IMG/VR virus record: IMGVR_UViG_2548876862_000021
Coordinates: 1 to 13,456 of that record
Length of the DNA: 13,456 bases
Reading direction: 5' to 3' (one strand)
Source of the DNA: a virus
Lineage: Duplodnaviria; Heunggongvirae; Uroviricota; Caudoviricetes
Positions 2,019 through 13,255 of the stretch are shown here, piece after piece. The notes beneath the pieces were generated by a model. The model was not told the DNA's origin and did no database searches. It worked only from the letters and a program-made list of their open reading frames with translations. The position numbers were made by a program, and so were the translations under genes. Each line of letters opens with the position of its first letter. Within the stretch, counting starts at the first letter, position 1.

Positions 2019-3455
2019 TCAGAATCCTCCTTTCTTCTTGGACTGCGGCTCCTCGCGTTCACGGCGGCGCATTTCAGCAGACTGTTGGTCTGTGTCATAA
2101 ATAGCGCCATTTGCCTGAATGCAATACACCGTGCCGGTATTGCCATGACGATTGAGACGAAGGATTAGTTCGGTTTCACCAGGTGGAACACTGTCATCAA
2201 AAGCACCTTCACGATGGATCCCCACCCAATAATCGCAATCCTGTTCAATCTGCCCTGTATCGCGCGAGTCACTTGGTAATGGGCGTTTATTGGTTCGGCT
2301 TTCCAATGCGCGGTTAAGCTGTGTCAGAAGCACAACAACGCAATCAAGCTCTTTGGCAAGGTTCTTCAATCCTTTGGTGATCATGCCGTAAGCAAGGTCG
2401 TTGCGATCGGCCTTCTCAGCAGTCATTAGTGTCAGGTAATCGACCAGAATCATGCCAACGCATCCTTTTTCTCGCTTGATTCGACGGCTTTCGCTGACGA
2501 TTTGAGCCAGAGATAATCCCGGCGTGTCGTCGATGTAAAGCATGTCGATTTCACTCAAGCGATTGGCTGTTTCGATCGCCCTGTTGAAGTCACCATCGTA
2601 ATCACCCTGATAGCCGTCATCGGCGTCATTTGTCGCCGGAAGGTAAAAAATATTCGGGTTAACACCAGACTTCTGCCCTACCAGTTTTTCCAGTATCTGG
2701 TCACCTGGCATTTCAAGGCTGAACATCAGAGCGGGCTTTTTCTCATGCACTGCGCAATTGATTGCCATCTGGCTGTATAGCGTCGTTTTCCCCATCTTAG
2801 GGCGAGCGCCAATGACAAACAGAGAGCCTTTCACCAGACCTTTCGGTGACAGCATCCTGTCCAGCGATGGGATCCCTGTGCTCATTCCTCGTTGTTCGCC
2901 TGACGGGTCAAATCGCTTCTCAAGGTCGCTAACCCAGTCTTCCATGACCTCACCAAATGAACGAAGGCCGCGACGCGATCCGGTTTTTGCATGGTCTGTC
3001 AGTTGCGTGAAAATCGACTGAATAGCTTCGTACTTCTGTGTTGCAGTCATTCCGTTGCGGGAATAGAGCAATTCCGTCGCTTCAGTCATGCGGTTGATGG
3101 CGTAGCGTTCCATTGCGGTTTCACGAACCTGCATTGCATAGGCAATGATGTTTGCTGCGCTTGGCGTGTTCTTTGCGATCTCAGCGATATAAGCAAAACC
3201 GCCAACAGACGCCGTTAACGATTTACGCTCCAGTTCATCGAAAAGCGTCAGGCCATCTACTGGCTTTTGCTCCCGGTGCATTCTGGTTATTTCTTCGAAA
3301 AGGATTTTGTGTGGTCGACTGTAAAATGAGTCAGGCTTCAGCATCGCCAGAACCTTCTGGACGCGCTCACTGCTGTCATCATCCAGAAGCAATCCACCAA
3401 TCACCGCCTGCTCTGCCTCGATGCTATGGGGCGGCGCATAAAAATTATCGGTCAT
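2019..3455 (-). CDS. Replicative DNA helicase, DnaB family (P22 gene 12-like)
   Basis: Strong resemblance to E. coli DnaB throughout (PHSIEAEQAVIGGLLLD, Walker A GARPKMGKTT, LVDYLTLM, LTQLNRALESR). Track starts at GTG 3470; I prefer ATG 3455-3453, preceded by GAGGGTG. Overlaps the O-like stop by 11 nt. Confidence 0.9.
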   Translation of the reverse strand: MTDNFYAPPHSIEAEQAVIGGLLLDDDSSERVQKVLAMLKPDSFYSRPHKILFEEITRMHREQKPVDGLTLFDELERKSLTASVGGFAYIAEIAKNTPSAANIIAYAMQVRETAMERYAINRMTEATELLYSRNGMTATQKYEAIQSIFTQLTDHAKTGSRRGLRSFGEVMEDWVSDLEKRFDPSGEQRGMSTGIPSLDRMLSPKGLVKGSLFVIGARPKMGKTTLYSQMAINCAVHEKKPALMFSLEMPGDQILEKLVGQKSGVNPNIFYLPATNDADDGYQGDYDGDFNRAIETANRLSEIDMLYIDDTPGLSLAQIVSESRRIKREKGCVGMILVDYLTLMTAEKADRNDLAYGMITKGLKNLAKELDCVVVLLTQLNRALESRTNKRPLPSDSRDTGQIEQDCDYWVGIHREGAFDDSVPPGETELILRLNRHGNTGTVYCIQANGAIYDTDQQSAEMRRREREEPQSKKKGGF

Positions 3456-4335
3456 CGTGTTCACCCTCACGAACTTTCAGGTAGGTATTATCGTTAAGCA
3501 GGAAATCAAATCCCTTTTTGTGCCAGACGGTTCCGCGCTGATGGTTTGGGCGCTCTTCGAACATCCATCGGCAATTTTCGCCTACGTAGCTCAAATAATT
3601 TCTCCAGTCCTGCATCGTGAAACCATGCCCGTCAAGCTGGCGGGTTATCACTCCGGCTTTGCGCCAGAACGTTCGGATCTGGTTTTTACGCTTGTCATTC
3701 AGTGCGCGGATTCTTGGCGCTTCAGGAAGGATTTCGTGGTAAGCATCGACAACATCCTGACAGCTAACGGAAGGTTTTTTCTTGTCAGACTTTTTGTCTG
3801 CTGTGGCACTCTCTAATACGTCAGTATTAGAGATATTATTTATATTATTGTTTATGGACAACCGTTGGACAACCGTTGGACAATCTCCGCTGAGAGCCGC
3901 GCCATTACTGGTGTTTGCGTTGGACAACCGTTGGACAACCGTTGGACAATTTTTTGCCTGAAAATCGTCATATTTAACGATTGTAAACAGGCTAAATTTC
4001 TTCCCCATCGAGCAAATATTAAGCATACCTTTCGACTCAAAAGTCCGTAATAAGCTCCGAACTTTGTTGTCGGGGATGAATGTTTCTCTGACCAGCGACG
4101 GGCGTCCAGTTATCATCTGACCGCGATCAACAGTTATCGGACCGATATCCGTATTGACGACAGTAGATTCGTGATTAGCCTTGAGGATTAAGTGAAGCCA
4201 AAGATGTACTGCCTGAGAGTCCTTATAGAGCCTGCTGTCCATAAACTGGCGGTGTATAGAGACATACCCCATACTGGATGCCTCCTGATGTTGTACAGGG
4301 TTATGCCTGTAATCAGCTAACTTAACGACGCCCAT
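3445..4335 (-). CDS. Replication initiator, lambda O-like (iteron-binding)
   Basis: 296-aa ORF immediately upstream of the helicase; contains the ori iterons inside its coding sequence (encoded peptide repeat CPTVVQRLSN), as in lambda O; AGGAG 6 nt upstream of the ATG. Confidence 0.75.
   Translation of the reverse strand: MGVVKLADYRHNPVQHQEASSMGYVSIHRQFMDSRLYKDSQAVHLWLHLILKANHESTVVNTDIGPITVDRGQMITGRPSLVRETFIPDNKVRSLLRTFESKGMLNICSMGKKFSLFTIVKYDDFQAKNCPTVVQRLSNANTSNGAALSGDCPTVVQRLSINNNINNISNTDVLESATADKKSDKKKPSVSCQDVVDAYHEILPEAPRIRALNDKRKNQIRTFWRKAGVITRQLDGHGFTMQDWRNYLSYVGENCRWMFEERPNHQRGTVWHKKGFDFLLNDNTYLKVREGEHDDR
3813..3950. repeat. Replication origin: two clusters of three direct ~11-bp iterons (GTTGGACAACC) plus flanking AT-rich stretch
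   Basis: Seen directly: 3856-3884 GGACAACCGTTGGACAACCGTTGGACAAT and 3919-3950 CGTTGGACAACCGTTGGACAACCGTTGGACAAT; AT-rich 3813-3855 (TATTAGAGATATTATTTATATTATTGTTTAT) lies downstream in the direction of O transcription, the lambda ori arrangement. Confidence 0.7.
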
Positions 4336-4796: not shown

Positions 4797-4854
4797 ATGT
4801 AAGTATTTCCTTAACAAATAAGAAGTTATGCGCATCAAATTATGCGCGTTGTAT

Positions 4855-4898
4855 TCCCGCATTTCGGCGGGAATGATGACCATGACTGTTAAAGAGCG
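4855..4898 (-). promoter_or_regulatory. nutR-like site: boxA (CGCTCTTTAACA) followed by boxB hairpin
   Basis: Read on minus strand: boxA at 4898-4887, 14-nt spacer, boxB TCCCGC-CGAAAT-GCGGGA at 4872-4855; the boxB 18-mer is identical to the one upstream of N. Confidence 0.6.
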
Positions 4899-5101: not shown

Positions 5102-5128
5102 GCACTCTCCGTTATTAACCATGAACAA

Positions 5129-5198
5129 AGAATACCACAGGTATTCAAAGCAATCAATACTCAGGGTATTTTTAGTTTAAGTACCTTAGCTATTAGAA
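5129..5198. promoter_or_regulatory. OR region: three 15-bp operators (AATACC-N3-GGTATT) with divergent PR and PRM
   Basis: 5131-5145 AATACCACAGGTATT (perfect palindrome), 5156-5170 AATACTCAGGGTATT (1 mismatch), 5180-5194 AGTACCTTAGCTATT (2 mismatches); centre spacing 25 and 24 bp. PR on minus: -35 TTGATT (5157-5152), 17-bp spacer, -10 TATTCT (5134-5129). Candidate PRM -10 TAGAAT 5193-5198. Confidence 0.65.
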
Positions 5199-5205
5199 TT
5201 AAGCT

Positions 5206-5922
5206 ATGGAAAATAAAAAATCACTGACGACAGAACAGCTCGAAGACGCTAAGCGGCTTAAGGCTTTGTATGAGTCAAAAAAGAAAGAATTGGGAATAAC
5301 CCAATACTCAATCGCTGATGAACTGGGTATCACCCAAGGAGCGGTAGGGCATTATCTTAATGGCAGAAACGCGCTAAACGTTGAGGTCGCATCTGGTTTT
5401 GCACGTTTGTTGCAAGTCTCAATTGCTGATTTTAGCCAGTCAATTGCTGCCAAGGTTGCAGAACAGGCAGAAAGCCTTAAGAGCGATGCCAACGTAAGGT
5501 ATGCAGGGGAATACAGAGCAGGAAAGAGGTATCCGGTGTTAAGCAGTATCCAGGCTGGCTCGTGGTGTGAAGCATGCGAACCATACACCATTAAAGACAT
5601 AGATGTTTGGCTTGAGTCTGACGCGCATATTCAAGGTAATGCGTTCTGGCTTAAAGTGGAAGGTGATTCAATGACGGCACCGGTTGGGTTAAGCATTCCA
5701 GAGGGAACATTCGTTCTTTTCGATACCGGAAGGGAGGCGATCAACGGCAGCTTGGTCATAGCAAAACTTTCTGACTCTAACGAAGCAACATTCAAGAAGC
5801 TGATAATCGACGGCGGAAATAAATACCTCAAGGGACTTAATCCTGCATGGCCTCTCGTGCCAATCAATGGAAACTGCAAGATTATAGGCGTTGCAATTGA
5901 GACAAAACTAAGGCTGGTTTGA
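5206..5922 (+). CDS. cI: CI-type prophage repressor (HTH N-terminal domain plus S24 LexA-like autocleavage domain)
   Basis: 238 aa, collinear with lambda CI ([24 protein letters not shown] / FWLEVEGNSMTAP / FKKLIRD all matched by close variants). No Shine-Dalgarno upstream of the ATG. Confidence 0.9.
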   Translation: MENKKSLTTEQLEDAKRLKALYESKKKELGITQYSIADELGITQGAVGHYLNGRNALNVEVASGFARLLQVSIADFSQSIAAKVAEQAESLKSDANVRYAGEYRAGKRYPVLSSIQAGSWCEACEPYTIKDIDVWLESDAHIQGNAFWLKVEGDSMTAPVGLSIPEGTFVLFDTGREAINGSLVIAKLSDSNEATFKKLIIDGGNKYLKGLNPAWPLVPINGNCKIIGVAIETKLRLV

Positions 5923-5939: not shown

Positions 5940-6308
5940 ATGGTTGGAACCGCTATAGCAAGCTTTTTTGGGATGTTGGCAATCTCGACAATTTACGGCT
6001 TAGCGCATGCTTTTATTGCGAAATCTCTATCAGAAAAAATAAGCCAGGCTTGGGCGCATAGATCAGCTCGTTTCATGATTCTGGTGATCATAGCAATACA
6101 AGGGATATCTGCATTTATCCTCTATGGATCAAGCTTATACCTATTGTATCAAGGCGCGACATTTACGCCTTACACCAGTGATTACGGAACTCTATACGAT
6201 GGTAGTGAAGACATCACTGTGGCTTGGATCGTCTTTGGTTTATCTATGGCCGTGTCTGTTGTAGCAGACATCATTAAGGTAATTCTCGTCTTAACCTTCG
6301 CTGACTAA
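5940..6308 (+). CDS. Small multi-pass membrane protein co-transcribed with cI (rexAB/sieB-position; candidate exclusion or abortive-infection factor)
   Basis: Track ORF 5919..6308 begins at a TTG overlapping the cI stop; ATG at 5940 has AAGGGG about 6 nt upstream. Several long hydrophobic segments consistent with transmembrane helices (AIASFFGMLAISTIYGLAHAFIA, FMILVIIAIQGISAFILYG, VAWIVFGLSMAVSVVADIIKVILVL). Confidence 0.6.
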   Translation: MVGTAIASFFGMLAISTIYGLAHAFIAKSLSEKISQAWAHRSARFMILVIIAIQGISAFILYGSSLYLLYQGATFTPYTSDYGTLYDGSEDITVAWIVFGLSMAVSVVADIIKVILVLTFAD

Positions 6309-6438
6309 CCTATAATCCCGGCAGCAATAGCTATCGGGATCCACTTCACATATCCCGCATAAAAAGCACTGAACAAGCAGACACCGAAAAAATAAATATC
6401 CTTTGTATTCATTTGCTTATCATTATTTCACCAAAAAT

Positions 6439-6480
6439 AAATACCTTGGGTATTTACACAATAAAATACCTACAGTATTC
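6439..6480 (+). promoter_or_regulatory. OL region: two operators of the same AATACC-N3-GGTATT family, with PL
   Basis: 6439-6453 AATACCTTGGGTATT (perfect), 6464-6478 AATACCTACAGTATT (1 mismatch), centres 25 bp apart. Candidate PL -35 TTTACA 6452-6457, 17-bp spacer, -10 TATTCT 6475-6480, the same -10 hexamer as PR. Confidence 0.6.
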
Positions 6481-6526
6481 TTTAGCCATCAGCAGGACGC
6501 TGGAAGCCAAACGGAACAGATTGGCA

Positions 6527-6568
6527 GGCTCTTTAACATTGATGGGATTGTCCCGCCGAAATGCGGGA
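6527..6568 (+). promoter_or_regulatory. nutL-like site: boxA (GGCTCTTTAACA) followed by boxB hairpin
   Basis: boxA 6527-6538 resembles the rrn/lambda boxA consensus; boxB TCCCGC-CGAAAT-GCGGGA at 6551-6568, identical to the nutR boxB; located between PL and N. Confidence 0.6.
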
Positions 6569-6675
6569 ACCAAAGAGTAGTTGGCTTTGGGGTGACGTGA
6601 AGTGCAGCTGCACGACGGCAACCGGAAGATAAGCACCCGGCGCGTCACCGCCAAAGTCAATCATCGGAGGTCAAC

Positions 6676-6975
6676 ATGACAGTAGTCATTACATATCTGG
6701 CTGACGATAACGCCAGAAATCGCCGCAGAGCACGCAGACAGGCTCAACGTGAGCAGGCAATGCAAGAGCAGCGACTGGCGCGAAAAATTGCGCTAAAGCT
6801 CTCTGGTTGCGTCAGAGCAGATAAAGCAGCATCACTCGGAAGCCTTCGCTGCAAGAAGGCAGAAGAAGTCGAGAGTAAACAGAATCGCATTTACTACCGC
6901 AAGCCACGCAGTGAAATGGGTGTGACTTGTGTTGGTCGCCAGAAAATGAAATTAAGCAGCAAACCACTTATTTGA
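6676..6975 (+). CDS. N: N-like transcription antiterminator
   Basis: 99 aa; N-terminal arginine-rich motif (NARNRRRARRQAQREQA); C-terminus RIYYRKPRSEMGVTCVGRQKMKLSSKPLI parallels lambda N (RTWYSKPGERGITCSGRQKIKGKSIPLI); GGAGG 6 nt upstream; directly downstream of nutL. Confidence 0.75.
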   Translation: MTVVITYLADDNARNRRRARRQAQREQAMQEQRLARKIALKLSGCVRADKAASLGSLRCKKAEEVESKQNRIYYRKPRSEMGVTCVGRQKMKLSSKPLI

Positions 6976-6983
6976 GGTGAGAT

Positions 6984-7070
6984 ATGGAAGAAGAATTTGA
7001 AGAGTTCGAAGAGCATCCGCAGGATGTGATGGAACAGTACCAGGACTATCCGTATGACTACGACTATTGA
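6984..7070 (+). CDS. Hypothetical 28-aa highly acidic, aromatic-rich peptide
   Basis: Hand-found: MEEEFEEFEEHPQDVMEQYQDYPYDYDY, preceded by GAGGTGAG. Very short, so coding status is uncertain. Confidence 0.3.
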   Translation: MEEEFEEFEEHPQDVMEQYQDYPYDYDY

Positions 7071-7254
7071 TAAAAATCAATGGTGTGGACAATTCAAGCG
7101 ATGCAATGGATGCAAGCTGCAATCGGAATGCATGGTTAAGCCTGAAGAAATGTTTCCTGTAATGGAAGATAGGAAATATGTCGATAAATGGGCAATACGA
7201 ACGACGGCAATGATTGCCAGAGAACTTGGTGAACTGAACAACAAGGCTGCCTGA
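7054..7254 (+). CDS. Hypothetical small Cys-containing protein (66 aa)
   Basis: Track ORF with C-x5-C-x2-C-x5-C spacing; weak ribosome-binding site; followed by a hairpin plus T-run. Confidence 0.35.
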   Translation: MTTTIDKNQWCGQFKRCNGCKLQSECMVKPEEMFPVMEDRKYVDKWAIRTTAMIARELGELNNKAA

Positions 7255-7290
7255 TGGTGGCCTTTATTTTCTTATTTGAGAGGAATTAAT

Positions 7291-7914
7291 ATGTCATCAA
7301 TCCGCTTAACTACGAGAATGAAAGAGGAAATCGCTCGTAACGCTTTAATTAAGTCTGGGGTTTTCACTGAGCTTGAAGAAGTAACAAAGTTAAAGAACCA
7401 GCTTGCACTTGACGCCAGAGTTATTGCGTTTGGCGGTAAAAAGAAAACTGAGGAAGTGGATCAGTTATCATCCAAGTTGGTAGCTATAAGTGAAGAACTT
7501 GAAAAGATGGGATGTTCATTTTACTCATACGATTTTCGTTCTACTTCAATTTATCTGACTGTATCTGGCAGAAGGGTTGGATGGCATTCATATGGGAAAG
7601 ACGGCAACGGCGAAGATATATTTCCCCCTACTCCAACCAAAGATAAATGCATGTTTGACGCAGAACACGAAATAACAAAAAGGTTTGATGAAATCTGCGC
7701 ATTGCAACAAAAACTTGAAGCCAAGAAAAAGGATATCGAATCAAATGTATGGGCTGCTTTGAACTCAGTCACAACAGTTAAGCGACTTATTGAGGTTTGG
7801 CCTGAAAGCAAAGAATTGCTACCAAAAGAAGCAGATAAAGCAAGTACAGCACTTCCTGCTTTACGGGTAGAAGATTTGAATAAGATGACTGGACTTCCTT
7901 CCGAGGCTGCATAG
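7291..7914 (+). CDS. Hypothetical protein (207 aa), first gene of low-GC cassette
   Basis: Track ORF 7276..7914; start set at ATG 7291 preceded by GAGAGGAA. GC about 38-40% in hand-counted 60-nt samples versus about 48-50% in flanking genes. No recognisable motif. Confidence 0.6.
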   Translation: MSSIRLTTRMKEEIARNALIKSGVFTELEEVTKLKNQLALDARVIAFGGKKKTEEVDQLSSKLVAISEELEKMGCSFYSYDFRSTSIYLTVSGRRVGWHSYGKDGNGEDIFPPTPTKDKCMFDAEHEITKRFDEICALQQKLEAKKKDIESNVWAALNSVTTVKRLIEVWPESKELLPKEADKASTALPALRVEDLNKMTGLPSEAA

Positions 7915-7977
7915 TCGGCCTTTATTTTTAGCATAAACAACAGAATAAACACTGCACTGAATTATTTGAGGTTAGAT

Positions 7978-8448
7978 ATGACAAAATCATGGAGCGTACC
8001 TTTTCCTGAATCAGAAACTGAACATGAGGGAATGCCTGTTTTCTGGAGATTCCAGGCGACAGTTGAAGAAGATGGAATCAAAATATTCGCACTTCAATAT
8101 ATAGCTTTTCATCAGACAGAGCATTATGCATGGTTGGTTCCTGCGCATTGGATTGTTAATTTTAAACCAGCACCAAATCAGTGGTTACAGGAATGGAAAC
8201 AAAAGAGAAATAGATATGCAATTAAGAAAGTAGCAAAAAATGCAGAAAGATCTTTTGCATTCCCAACGAAGAAACTTGCCATTGAGAGTTTATTGCGCCG
8301 GAAGAAATACCATTTAATGAGAATCAAACAAGATTTGGCTGTTGTATCAACTCTTGTTGATGGGATGAAGAATATTGATACATCAACACCAGATATTGAA
8401 TATAACTTTGGGCACAACCAAGAAACAGAAAATTGGGTATTTTATTAG
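7978..8448 (+). CDS. Hypothetical protein (156 aa), second gene of low-GC cassette
   Basis: Track ORF 7966..8448; start set at ATG 7978 preceded by GAGGT. Low GC; no recognisable motif. Confidence 0.6.
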   Translation: MTKSWSVPFPESETEHEGMPVFWRFQATVEEDGIKIFALQYIAFHQTEHYAWLVPAHWIVNFKPAPNQWLQEWKQKRNRYAIKKVAKNAERSFAFPTKKLAIESLLRRKKYHLMRIKQDLAVVSTLVDGMKNIDTSTPDIEYNFGHNQETENWVFY

Positions 8449-8552
8449 TACGAGTAAGCACTATGTATTCATTCCAACGAGTGAATACACGGAGCAATGT
8501 CGCTCGTAACTAAACAGGAGCCGACTTGTTCTGATTATTGGAAATCTTCTTT

Positions 8553-8578
8553 GCCCTCCAGTGTGAGGGCTTTTTTAT
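8553..8578 (+). terminator. Intrinsic terminator downstream of the low-GC cassette
   Basis: GCCCTC-CAGTGT-GAGGGC stem-loop immediately followed by TTTTTTAT. Confidence 0.6.
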
Positions 8579-8642
8579 ATGCATACCAATAACGCTTCAC
8601 TTGAGGCGTTTTCGTTATGCAATCAAATATAAGGAGTTACCC

Positions 8643-8777
8643 ATGATGCACTTTCAGCTCGCGGGTAGCGGCGTCATGTCCGCTTTCTACCCGCACGAAT
8701 CTGAATTATCACGCCGAGTTAAACAATTAATCAGAGCAGCAAAGAAACAACTGGAGGCGTTATGCGCAATGAGATAG
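8643..8777 (+). CDS. cIII: cIII-like small protein (44 aa; FtsH-inhibitor family)
   Basis: MMHFQLAGSGVMSAFYPHESELSRRVKQLIRAAKKQLEALCAMR resembles the lambda CIII core (AIAGWPVAGCPSESLLERITRKLR); AAGGAG upstream. The 79-aa track ORF 8538..8777 is an upstream TTG extension of it. Confidence 0.55.
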   Translation: MMHFQLAGSGVMSAFYPHESELSRRVKQLIRAAKKQLEALCAMR

Positions 8778-8914
8778 CCATCAATCACCAGATGCTTCGT
8801 GCTGCACAGAACAAAGCAGTAATAGCTAGATTTATTGGTGATTCCAAAATGTGGCTTGAAGCAAATAAAGCGATGAAATCAGCTATCAACCTTCCGTGGT
8901 ATCGCAGGAAATGA
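8762..8914 (+). CDS. Kil-like small protein (50 aa), overlapping the cIII-like 3' end
   Basis: Hand-found: MRNEIAINHQMLRAAQNKAVIARFIGDSKMWLEANKAMKSAINLPWYRRK. GGAGG upstream; overlap with cIII mirrors the lambda cIII/kil arrangement. Similarity to lambda Kil is from uncertain recall of an ATFIGDEKMF-type motif. Confidence 0.4.
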   Translation: MRNEIAINHQMLRAAQNKAVIARFIGDSKMWLEANKAMKSAINLPWYRRK

Positions 8915-8989
8915 GTTTTACAGATAACTGGTCAGACGAAGAATTCATTCGTCAGATGAAAGAATTAATCGGTAACGAAGGAGATATTC

Positions 8990-9160
8990 ATGTCACTTGC
9001 AACCACAGTGAAGGAGAGCAAGTTACAGAGACGCATGTACACGCAGAAAGCTCTCTGGTATCGCCATAATGGTGACCGCGAAGGAATGCGGGTATGCCTT
9101 AATTTGTCCCGAGTCGAAGTATTAAATCAGCGTTATTTCCTTGGGCCGTGTCCATTCTGA
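8990..9160 (+). CDS. Hypothetical small protein (56 aa)
   Basis: Hand-found: MSLATTVKESKLQRRMYTQKALWYRHNGDREGMRVCLNLSRVEVLNQRYFLGPCPF. AAGGAG upstream; ends 8 nt before the SSAP gene. Confidence 0.35.
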   Translation: MSLATTVKESKLQRRMYTQKALWYRHNGDREGMRVCLNLSRVEVLNQRYFLGPCPF

Positions 9161-9168
9161 GGTGAATT

Positions 9169-9876
9169 ATGGATTTGAATAAATTCGATGAGCCATTCAG
9201 CCCTGAAGATATCGAATGGCGAATACAGCAAAGCGGTAAAACACGCGATGGCAAAGTGTGGGCTATGGTGCTGGCTTATGTCACGAACCGGGCAATCATG
9301 AAACGCCTGGACGATGTTTGTGGCAAAGCAGGATGGCGCAATGAATACCGCGATATTCCCAACAACGGCGGCGTTGAATGCGGCATATCAATAAAGATTG
9401 ATTCCGAATGGGTAACCAAATGGGATGCTGCTGAAAACACGCAGGTAGAAGCCGTCAAAGGTGGTCGTTCAGGTGCAATGAAGCGCGCTGCCGTTCAGTG
9501 GGGAATCGGTCGGTATCTGTATAACCTTGAGGAAGGTTTCGCACAAACATCTCTCGACAAAAAGCAGGGATGGCACAGGGCAAAACTCAAGGATGGAACA
9601 GGATTTTACTGGCTCCCTCCATCGCTGCCAGGCTGGGCAATCCCAGCATCAGATAACAAACCATCACCAGAAAATACCAACCAGAAATCTCCATCGGTTG
9701 ACTGCGAGCAAATCCTGAAAGACTTCAGCGATTATGCGTCAACAGAAACTGACAAGAAAAAACTCATCGAGCGTTATCAGCGTGACTGGCAATTAATGGC
9801 TGGCAACGAGGAAGCGCAGGCTAAATGCGTTCAGGTAATGAACATCAGAGTTAACGAACTAAAACAGGCGGCATAA
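9169..9876 (+). CDS. Single-strand annealing protein, Rad52/Sak-like
   Basis: 235 aa; region KGGRSGAMKRAAVQWGIGRYLY fits the Rad52-family pattern; stop abuts the SSB start (TAAATG); GAGGTG upstream. Confidence 0.6.
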   Translation: MDLNKFDEPFSPEDIEWRIQQSGKTRDGKVWAMVLAYVTNRAIMKRLDDVCGKAGWRNEYRDIPNNGGVECGISIKIDSEWVTKWDAAENTQVEAVKGGRSGAMKRAAVQWGIGRYLYNLEEGFAQTSLDKKQGWHRAKLKDGTGFYWLPPSLPGWAIPASDNKPSPENTNQKSPSVDCEQILKDFSDYASTETDKKKLIERYQRDWQLMAGNEEAQAKCVQVMNIRVNELKQAA

Positions 9877-13124: not shown

Positions 13125-13187
13125 TTTATTTATTCATATATGAAAACAATGTAACCAATATTCGAATTGAAGAACTGAAAGAACACC

Positions 13188-13212
13188 AAGCCGCCTGATG
13201 GCGGTTTTTTAT
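13188..13212 (+). terminator. Intrinsic terminator ending the leftward-operon accessory block
   Basis: CCGCC-TGAT-GGCGG stem-loop followed by TTTTTTATT. Confidence 0.6.
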
Positions 13213-13255
13213 TACCTGATTTGCAGGTTCGATTCCCTATTCGGAGATAGCACTC

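Follow-up and report, generated by a model that had tools for sequence, protein, structure and literature searches.

The window analysed here is a stretch of DNA of 13,456 nucleotides (nt) from IMG/VR virus record IMGVR_UViG_2548876862_000021, and it holds a lambdoid prophage whose early-left (pL) operon lies on the + strand. Within this operon, 0.8–1.5 kb downstream of pL, three gene junctions have short sequences in common: those between N and orf28 (J0), between ral and a gene of the Nmad5 family (J1), and between the latter and orf156 (J2). We consider that these junctions are quite probably conserved boundary (linker) blocks of the lambdoid N-cIII accessory region, which serve as translation-start adaptors (5′) or terminator-like adaptors (3′) and at which gene cassettes are exchanged. 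The GC fraction is 0.37–0.41 across positions 7000-8600, compared with 0.47–0.52 elsewhere in the window. The genes that meet at the junctions, and the region that follows them, are these:

6676-6975, + strand: N, with its TGA at 6973-6975 (annotated relatives, Pfam, PHROGs)
6984-7070, + strand: orf28 (phrog_16060)
7054-7254, + strand: ral, with its TGA at 7252-7254 (Pfam Ral, E = 4.5e-46)
7291-7914, + strand: Nmad5-family gene, 207 aa (Pfam PF18757, E = 4.6e-70, residues 4-203)
7978-8448, + strand: orf156, of a function-unknown family (phrog_1636)
8464-8576, + strand: LPR1-like small RNA (sRNA) region with a terminator at 8553-8576, near-identical to lambda

The overlapping orf28 and ral, arranged as orf28-ral in lambda, make up cassette 1 (6984..7254, + strand), the Nmad5-family gene is cassette 2 and orf156 cassette 3, whereas the LPR1-like region is the constant right-hand anchor of the variable accessory region. 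These three cassettes are accompanied in the window by three 5′ blocks (r) and two 3′ blocks (a hairpin with its T-run, h), the second of which is continued by the spacer blocks s and t:

6956..6986, + strand: 5′ block r0 of J0, GCAGCAAACCAC-TTATTTGAGG-TGAGAT-ATG, containing the last codons and TGA of N, the Shine-Dalgarno sequence GAGGTGA and the ATG of orf28
7243..7270, + strand: 3′ block hA of J1, hairpin AAGGCTGCC-TGAT-GGTGGCCTT at 7243-7264 followed by TATTTT (terminator scan)
7271..7293, + strand: 5′ block r1 of J1, CTTATTTGAGAGGAATTAAT-ATG, with the ATG at 7291-7293, translation start region of the Nmad5-family gene
7903..7929, + strand: 3′ block hB of J2, hairpin GAGGCTG-CATAGT-CGGCCTT at 7903-7922 followed by TATTTTT (terminator scan)
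7929..7959, + strand: spacer blocks s and t of J2, TAGCATAAACAACAGA-ATAAACACTGCACTG, a conserved backbone that in lambda joins the ral hairpin to the LPR1 region
7960..7980, + strand: 5′ block r2 of J2, AATTATTTGAGGTTAGAT-ATG, with the ATG at 7978-7980, translation start region of orf156

Common to the three junctions is a ribosome-binding-site block, TTATTTGAG(G), whose J0 copy lies at 6968-6977. The J0 and J2 versions are identical at 18 of 19 positions (TTATTTGAGGTGAGATATG and TTATTTGAGGTTAGATATG), and that of J1, TTATTTGAGAGG, has one mismatch to TTATTTGAGG, the form within which the TGA of N is embedded. In the 5′ blocks, the GAGG(TGA) is placed 6–7 nt before the ATG, after an A/U-rich leader. 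J1 and J2 also have in common the hairpin with its T-run (12 nt identical); the T-run and the ribosome-binding-site block are adjacent in J1, whereas in J2 a 31-nt spacer, TAGCATAAACAACAGAATAAACACTGCACTG (7929-7959), stands between them. The hB of the window departs from the consensus GGCCGCATAGTCGGCC by a C→T change that gives a G·U wobble. Both upstream genes end inside their hairpins, with the TGA of ral and the TAG of Nmad5 (7912-7914) in the loops, and the last codons of Nmad5, E-A-A-stop (7903-7914), are encoded by the 5′ arm and the loop. Because the Pfam domain of Nmad5 ends at residue 203 of 207, these codons would lie in a grafted hairpin arm; ral ends with K-A-A-stop in the equivalent position, so that the grafted 3′ end appears to be common to both genes. 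On the other side of orf156, its 3′ flank GAGTAAGCACTA (8452-8463) is an imperfect repeat of the t block sequence GAATAAACACTG (7944-7955).

The similarity between the junctions is far above chance. Exact TTATTTGAG occurs in 4 copies in the window against 0.17 expected, a number reached in 0 of 200 shuffles, and GGCCTTTATTTT in exactly two, at 7259 and 7917. Local alignment of J1 with J2 scores 31, compared with 14.3 ± 2.6 in dinucleotide shuffles (reached by 1 of 2000), and that of J0 with J2 scores 33, compared with 13.7 ± 2.5 (0 of 2000), which makes it the top-scoring pair among all 19 + strand junctions of the window. The 10-mer common to J0 and J1 is marginal when taken alone (54 of 2000 shuffles). 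The fourth exact TTATTTGAG is found on the - strand at 3590-3598, within an open reading frame (ORF, 3445-4335); it lies about 120 nt upstream of where the next - strand ORF starts, and is probably a chance match or unrelated.

Both 3′ blocks look like intrinsic terminators. The J1 hairpin has 9 pairs (5 G-C) and a 4-nt loop and folds at -13.9 kcal/mol (z = -3.96); the J2 hairpin has 7 pairs (4 G-C) and a 6-nt loop and folds at -8.8 kcal/mol (-11.0 for the consensus), and the LPR1/tL2a-type terminator at 8553 at -11.1 kcal/mol. Both junctions passed the terminator scan as well as the stem test for intrinsic terminators (a GC-rich stem of at least 5 bp, a loop of 3–8 nt), and a U-rich tract follows the stem at the gene end on the + (pL-operon sense) strand, namely TATTTTCT in J1 and TATTTTTA in J2; the stems are not followed by a T-run on the - strand. 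A fixed-gap hairpin pattern found nothing because the loops of J1 and J2 differ in length, and an Rfam search of 6300-9200 at a permissive threshold returned no relevant family. Two types of hairpin can be distinguished, which differ in inner stem and loop and both fold: type A, AAGGCTGCCTGATGGTGGCCTT, is specific to the end of ral, and type B has the consensus GGCCGCATAGTCGGCC. The latter type carries an in silico rho-independent terminator annotation in the GenBank record of phage mEp234. hA is kept after ral in most relatives, the lambda copy being degenerate (-4.3 kcal/mol), and we know of no mapped terminator at the position of the ral hairpin. Among spacer-anchored copies, around 80–85% keep a hairpin of -8 kcal/mol or lower. 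RNase III processing was ruled out because stems of 7–9 bp are too short to be RNase III substrates, and a recent tandem duplication in this genome was discarded because the two hairpins are distinct, separately conserved types.

With regard to the initial annotation, which had described a repeated module at J1 and J2, the hairpins, T-runs, ribosome-binding sites and ATGs are present essentially as it said, and the two junctions do share architecture and sequence. Several details need correction. The J2 hairpin, placed there at 7901, begins 2 nt later, at 7903; the description of both hairpins as weak does not suit J1; the ribosome-binding-site block is shared by the two junctions as claimed, though with one mismatch in J1, and its third copy at J0 had been overlooked; and the common layout of hairpin, T-run and ribosome-binding site stands except for the spacer, which is found in J2 only.

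When positions 6600-8600 were searched with BLAST, matches were found in hundreds of lambdoid and Shiga toxin (Stx) phages and in 2280 of 5426 complete E. coli genomes, always piecewise; the best coverage in one place was 83% in those genomes. The contiguous order orf28-ral, Nmad5, orf156 was found in none of the 5426 genomes and in none of the 130 sampled loci described below, and each pairwise combination exists. In phi367, which is without a copy of Nmad5, ral is joined straight to orf156 through a hybrid junction consisting of the J1 hairpin followed by the spacer and ribosome-binding site of J2, the pattern that removal of the Nmad5 cassette between both GGCCTTTATTTT copies would leave. 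In E. coli DP051 and in locus L117, N is joined straight to Nmad5 through the left half of J0 and the right half of J1, and a block identical to r1 stands directly after N in DP051 and 13 other loci. In L142-type loci (16 by one count, 19 by another), N is joined to orf156 via a J0 (r0-type) block. Finally, 10 loci (L005-type) are without orf156 and their spacer runs directly into the LPR1 region, as it does in lambda, whose order is ral-h-s-t-LPR1; in lambda and in these loci, orf156 is missing precisely between CACTG and TGTATTC. All four single-step recombinants of the window's own repeats therefore occur naturally, and the hybrid junctions of phi367, DP051, L117 and other loci are consistent with crossovers inside the blocks.

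The census covered 130 sampled loci in which the region is complete from the first 5′ block to the start of LPR1 (119 distinct sequences, 265–1533 nt). They contain 21 ORF families in 40 gene orders and obey a simple grammar: r and a cassette; any number of repeats of h, one of r, s or s-t-r, and a further cassette; and finally h, s, t and LPR1. A region has 0, 1 or 2 hairpin copies in 22, 84 and 24 loci, respectively, and within this sample the 5′ block reaches three copies in no region but that of the window, whose three-cassette order is unique. The 3′ block, of about 55–57 nt, takes the form of a stop codon, (A/G)GGCCGCATAGTCGGCC, TTTATTTTT and GGCATAAACAACAGA(ATAAACACNGCACTG), and is found after at least 8 unrelated genes and before at least 7 different right contexts. 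The 5′ block, of about 32–37 nt, takes the form (GCAGCAAACCAC)TTATTTGAGGTGAKAT-ATG, also written GCAGCAAACCACTTATTTGAGGTGAKAT-ATG. On its left there are at least 8 contexts; on its right it is fused, with the joint exactly at the ATG, to at least 11 unrelated genes, of which many start ATGGAA. Identity is 90–100% across 221–263 phage records. The 3′ block (h-s-t) is present in 221 phage records and, among the 5426 complete E. coli genomes, in 1539 (28%); the 5′ block is present in 263 phage records, mostly Escherichia, Stx phages, Salmonella and Shigella, with a few from Cronobacter. Per record, the blocks occupy a median of 1 place, and they always lie in the N-cIII region; exact 14-mer matches outside lambdoid contexts are singletons in unrelated contexts. 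The blocks, their conservation, their variable flanks and the hybrid junctions can thus be read directly from the compared loci: the blocks lie at gene boundaries, abut or overlap stop codons and run to the ATG, with unrelated genes on both sides, as linkers do.

The proposal that genes arrived as modular cassettes, each bringing its own junction, gains support from phi367, from DP051 and L117, from the L142- and L005-type loci, and from the number of families and orders in the census. It has to be qualified in that a cassette is not always one gene, orf28 and ral travelling together, and in that the 5′ and 3′ blocks are separable and do not form one fixed module. Nor does the similarity lie at the level expected by chance, the alignment scores being well above the shuffles, and the motif is present at other junctions, namely at J0 and across related phages and prophages.

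As for the Nmad5 cassette, it was not found with its adaptors outside lambdoid phages; alleles of at least 90% identity occur in lambdoid and Stx phages only, and identity drops to at most 35% in the next homologues. In many Stx2a phages (e.g. LC616077.1 11131-11652), the Nmad5 homologue matches residues 34-207 only, and does so twice in each record, a sign that the copy may be disrupted or rearranged.

How might these blocks work? The 5′ block would provide a ready-made translation start, with its A/U-rich leader, its GAGG(TGA) Shine-Dalgarno sequence and a correctly spaced ATG, and after N it would also provide the stop codon of N. In the 3′ block, a GC-rich hairpin covers or directly adjoins the stop codon, TTTATTTTT comes next and, in many cases, the spacer GGCATAAACAACAGA(ATAAACACNGCACTG) after it; this would act as an intrinsic terminator that N-modified RNA polymerase reads through and at which unmodified polymerase stops. 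Terminator activity, N read-through and the recombination enzymes named below are what we infer from this arrangement. Since the terminator scan found no terminator-like site on the + strand between pL and 7243, J1 would be the first barrier for a polymerase not modified by N, and N, orf28 and ral would consequently belong to the immediate-early transcript; J2, the LPR1 terminator and a hairpin at 8591 would be further barriers. No promoter-like site was detected by scan on the + strand at 6481-8917. A ribosome at a stop codon in the loop should mask the 3′ arm, so that termination would be strongest on untranslated RNA.

Because hundreds of phages and prophages have the same 25–57-nt blocks with unrelated genes on either side, these would offer short homologies through which cassettes, often of anti-defence genes, could be exchanged, added or deleted by homologous recombination. 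The likely agents would be Rad52-type annealing proteins of phages (the operon encodes one further downstream), with a lesser role for RecA. The shortest segment that pairs efficiently has been quoted as 23–27 bp for Redβ and 31–34 bp for RecA, and where homologies are short and diverged, exchange has been described as mainly the work of Rad52-like phage recombinases (PMC3945230); the block lengths are at or above these minima for both proteins. More speculatively, the TTATTT common to the T-run of the 3′ block and the beginning of the 5′ block may explain the direct fusion of h and r at J1. It is also conceivable, and we put it forward only tentatively, that the N-cIII region is a plug-and-play cassette system, the lambdoid equivalent of T4 PeSLs or of an integron lacking its integrase, whose adaptors have been selected, and not just tolerated as flanks, so that a single-strand-annealing recombinase reshuffles early anti-defence genes among co-resident prophages, possibly via excised circles, with the hairpin grading the dependence on N.

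Could the same junctions have arisen in another way? They might be passive scars, that is, leftover backbone (the ancestral ral-LPR1 spacer and an N-distal leader) around illegitimate insertions, with joints at gene ends retained by selection, as in the Hendrix model, and spread through long flanking homology. We regard this as unlikely. It agrees with the undivided h-s-t backbone of lambda, with right-hand joints at several discrete points within the s-t spacer, with the imperfect 12-nt repeat that is all that flanks orf156, and with the existence of many phage mosaics without boundary sequences (PMC3233612); also, the exact repeats inside the window measure only 10–12 nt, under the pairing minimum. 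However, the hairpin block is duplicated, not split, in 24 of the 130 sampled regions. Type B hairpins follow at least 8 unrelated genes, at internal positions where both neighbours vary, and the 5′ block stands at the ATG of at least 11 genes in at least 8 left contexts, so that it is often the sole homology available. The hybrid junctions are also exactly those expected from crossovers inside the blocks. That the blocks are purely regulatory, selected as a terminator or RNA-stabilising hairpin plus a strong ribosome-binding site and alike by functional convergence with no role in gene shuffling, seems to us very improbable: their anatomy is that of a canonical terminator and Shine-Dalgarno sequence, and the mEp234 annotation speaks for it, but convergence does not produce 25–57 nt of identity that includes positions without known function (GCAGCAAACCAC; GGCATAAACAACAGAATAAACAC) and is 90–100% in hundreds of genomes, the ribosome-binding site is used by only 3 of the 19 + strand starts in the window, and the stems decay in some lineages. 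Smaller still is the probability that we assign to a small mobile element or a site-specific cassette system, like miniature inverted-repeat transposable elements (MITEs) or integron attC sites, inserting at the junctions. The imperfect inverted repeat at the 3′ ends of cassettes is superficially attC-like and the architecture is that of a cassette array, but the block is found in one region per prophage and is not dispersed, there are no target duplications and no terminal inverted repeats beyond the 5–9-bp stem, the joints occur at variable points, and relatives are annotated with ordinary lambdoid gene content; no integron-type integrase was found by Pfam among the 10 + strand operon genes, the - strand ORFs having been left unannotated. 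As to a chance likeness of AT-rich intergenic DNA, whose one favourable figure is that of the J0/J1 10-mer, its probability is negligible in view of the counts of GGCCTTTATTTT and TTATTTGAG, the junction alignment shuffles and the conservation in hundreds of genomes, which refute it.

Boundary blocks as sites of cassette exchange have, in turn, several points weighing against them besides the shortness of the exact repeats. Around 15–20% of hairpin copies have decayed, lambda included, and the stem changes seen in relatives are mostly one-sided or wobble, with one clearly compensatory change (GGACG...CGTCC); the type B hairpins unbiased by the search pattern number n=7, and the larger spacer-anchored sample has mainly one-sided changes. 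Structural selection is therefore weak or lineage-specific. The stop codons in the loops are a further difficulty, because the 3′ arm would be masked by a ribosome terminating there, with less termination as the result; according to PMC4824070, a terminator placed a few bp after a gene was almost fully repressed. Long flanking homologies (N, LPR1-cIII) could carry many of the exchanges, the blocks being then passive flanks, and termination, N read-through and recombination at the blocks are all deduced from anatomy and comparison. Lastly, the IMG/VR pattern scans, with at least about 260 loci, found these by exact block patterns and are a biased sample, not a population.

The linker reading has precedents. 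In lambdoid phages, boundary or linker sequences at gene boundaries have been considered recombination foci (Susskind & Botstein 1978; Clark et al. 2001 for HK620; both as cited in PMC3233612). They resemble the blocks in being short, conserved, flanked by non-homologous genes and found in the same phage group, under the same principle; the blocks differ in their defined 5′/3′ adaptor anatomy, their location from N to LPR1/cIII and their quantified grammar. In T4-type phages, the promoter-early stem-loop (PeSL) combines a promoter with a terminator stem-loop and mediates the shuffling of modules in hyperplastic regions (PMC2839356, PMC4122927). Like PeSLs, the blocks are small conserved motifs with a terminator stem-loop, located between non-essential genes at points of indel or replacement. 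PeSLs, however, have a strong sigma-70 early promoter, whereas the junctions of the window have no promoter-like site, carry a ribosome-binding site and would depend on pL and N read-through; mini-circles are not known for lambdoid blocks, and the phage family is unrelated. A ribosome-binding site in place of a promoter would fit a single N-antiterminated operon. The tL2 cluster of lambda belongs to the same operon and has the same orientation and a hairpin with a U-run, and the window keeps the LPR1/tL2a terminator at 8553-8576; nevertheless tL2a, described together with LPR1 in bioRxiv 10.1101/2024.10.31.621285, is the 3′ end of LPR1 and not the ral hairpin, which in lambda lies about 130 nt upstream.

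Integron cassettes also form a promoterless array behind one promoter with an imperfect inverted repeat (attC) at their 3′ ends. They differ from the cassettes of the window in that here no integrase was found among the 10 scanned + strand operon genes, attC core sites not having been formally searched, the hairpin has only 5–9 bp, the joints are variable and exchange is proposed to be homology-dependent, not site-specific. Dispersed elements such as MITEs or repetitive extragenic palindromic (REP) sequences differ from the blocks, which occupy a median of 1 place per record and always the N-cIII region. Morons, which are said to have been described by Juhala et al. and by Hendrix et al., both in 2000, are reportedly autonomous extra genes between lambdoid backbone genes, with their own promoter, a 3′ terminator and deviant composition. 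The cassettes resemble them as inserted extra genes of low GC content with a terminator-like 3′ end; unlike them, they have no detected promoter and share standardised junctions. The region containing ral is listed by Silas et al. (bioRxiv 10.1101/2023.04.06.535777) among accessory regions with variable genes that interact with host defences; in the passages found there by term search, gene content is what defines the regions, and no conserved junction blocks are mentioned. A full-text literature search for the exact motif strings gave only unrelated primer matches, and neither ral nor breakpoints or boundaries come up in a paper on lambdoid co-transfer (PMC9836094). The principle was familiar before, from the boundary sequences of lambdoid phages and from the PeSLs of T4; the blocks are a well-defined added example, not a new system.

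Other features of the window place the junctions in a complete early region:

5206-5922, + strand: cI-like repressor gene (annotated relatives, Pfam, PHROGs)
about 6385-6481, + strand: pL with its operators (map position)
9169-9876, + strand: Rad52-family recombinase gene (Pfam/PHROGs, annotated relatives)

Further genes of the pL operon, all on the + strand, are cIII, kil and those for SSB and Abc2 (annotated relatives, Pfam, PHROGs). Operator-like repeats AAATACC...GGTATTT at 6385-6480 and 5127-5171 flank the repressor gene, overlapping a promoter-like site at 6453-6481, and probably represent oL/pL and oR. At 4854-4872 and 6551-6569 there is a perfect inverted repeat of 19 nt, TCCCGCCGAAATGCGGGAA, which would give identical stem-loops on the divergent early transcripts; the copy at 6551-6569 is probably the boxB element of nutL and that at 4854-4872 the one of nutR. 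About 8 tandem or clustered 11-nt repeats, TGGACAACCGT, at 3855-3961 within the - strand ORF 3445-4335 look like origin iterons inside a replication-initiator gene. A third hairpin with a T-run, AAGCCGCCTGATGGCGGTTTTTT, lies at 13185-13215 (-13.0 kcal/mol) and has the CCTGATGG loop region of the ral hairpin. In 31 related loci the sequence to its left does not vary, and directly after the T-run one of at least 4 different right flanks starts, which makes it another terminator-like mosaic boundary. In some relatives (L002 at 7560-7590; L035, L048, L050 and others), a further boundary block is seen in which different genes have an identical 3′ coding tail, GCAATCAGCAAAGCTCTTGGGGATAAGTA-ATG, before several downstream genes; boundary blocks can therefore reach into coding ends, like the last codons of N in the window.

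The N-cIII region is the first to be expressed after infection or induction, and its genes include those for the anti-restriction protein Ral and for Nmad5, besides many whose function is unknown. The Tmn defence senses Nmad5, a DNA-modification protein, in Dhillonvirus (PMC11846954), and the accessory region is now being mined for counter-defence genes. For this purpose, the grammar r cassette h ... h s t LPR1 would allow cassettes to be precisely delimited and harvested from thousands of prophages, and the blocks could be used as natural adaptors for the insertion of genes into lambdoid phages with native expression. The position of ral and N upstream of what would be the first intrinsic terminator predicts that both could be made before antitermination is established. 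For the mosaicism of phage genomes, the blocks offer a concrete case in which the boundary-sequence model may be tested against that of illegitimate recombination.

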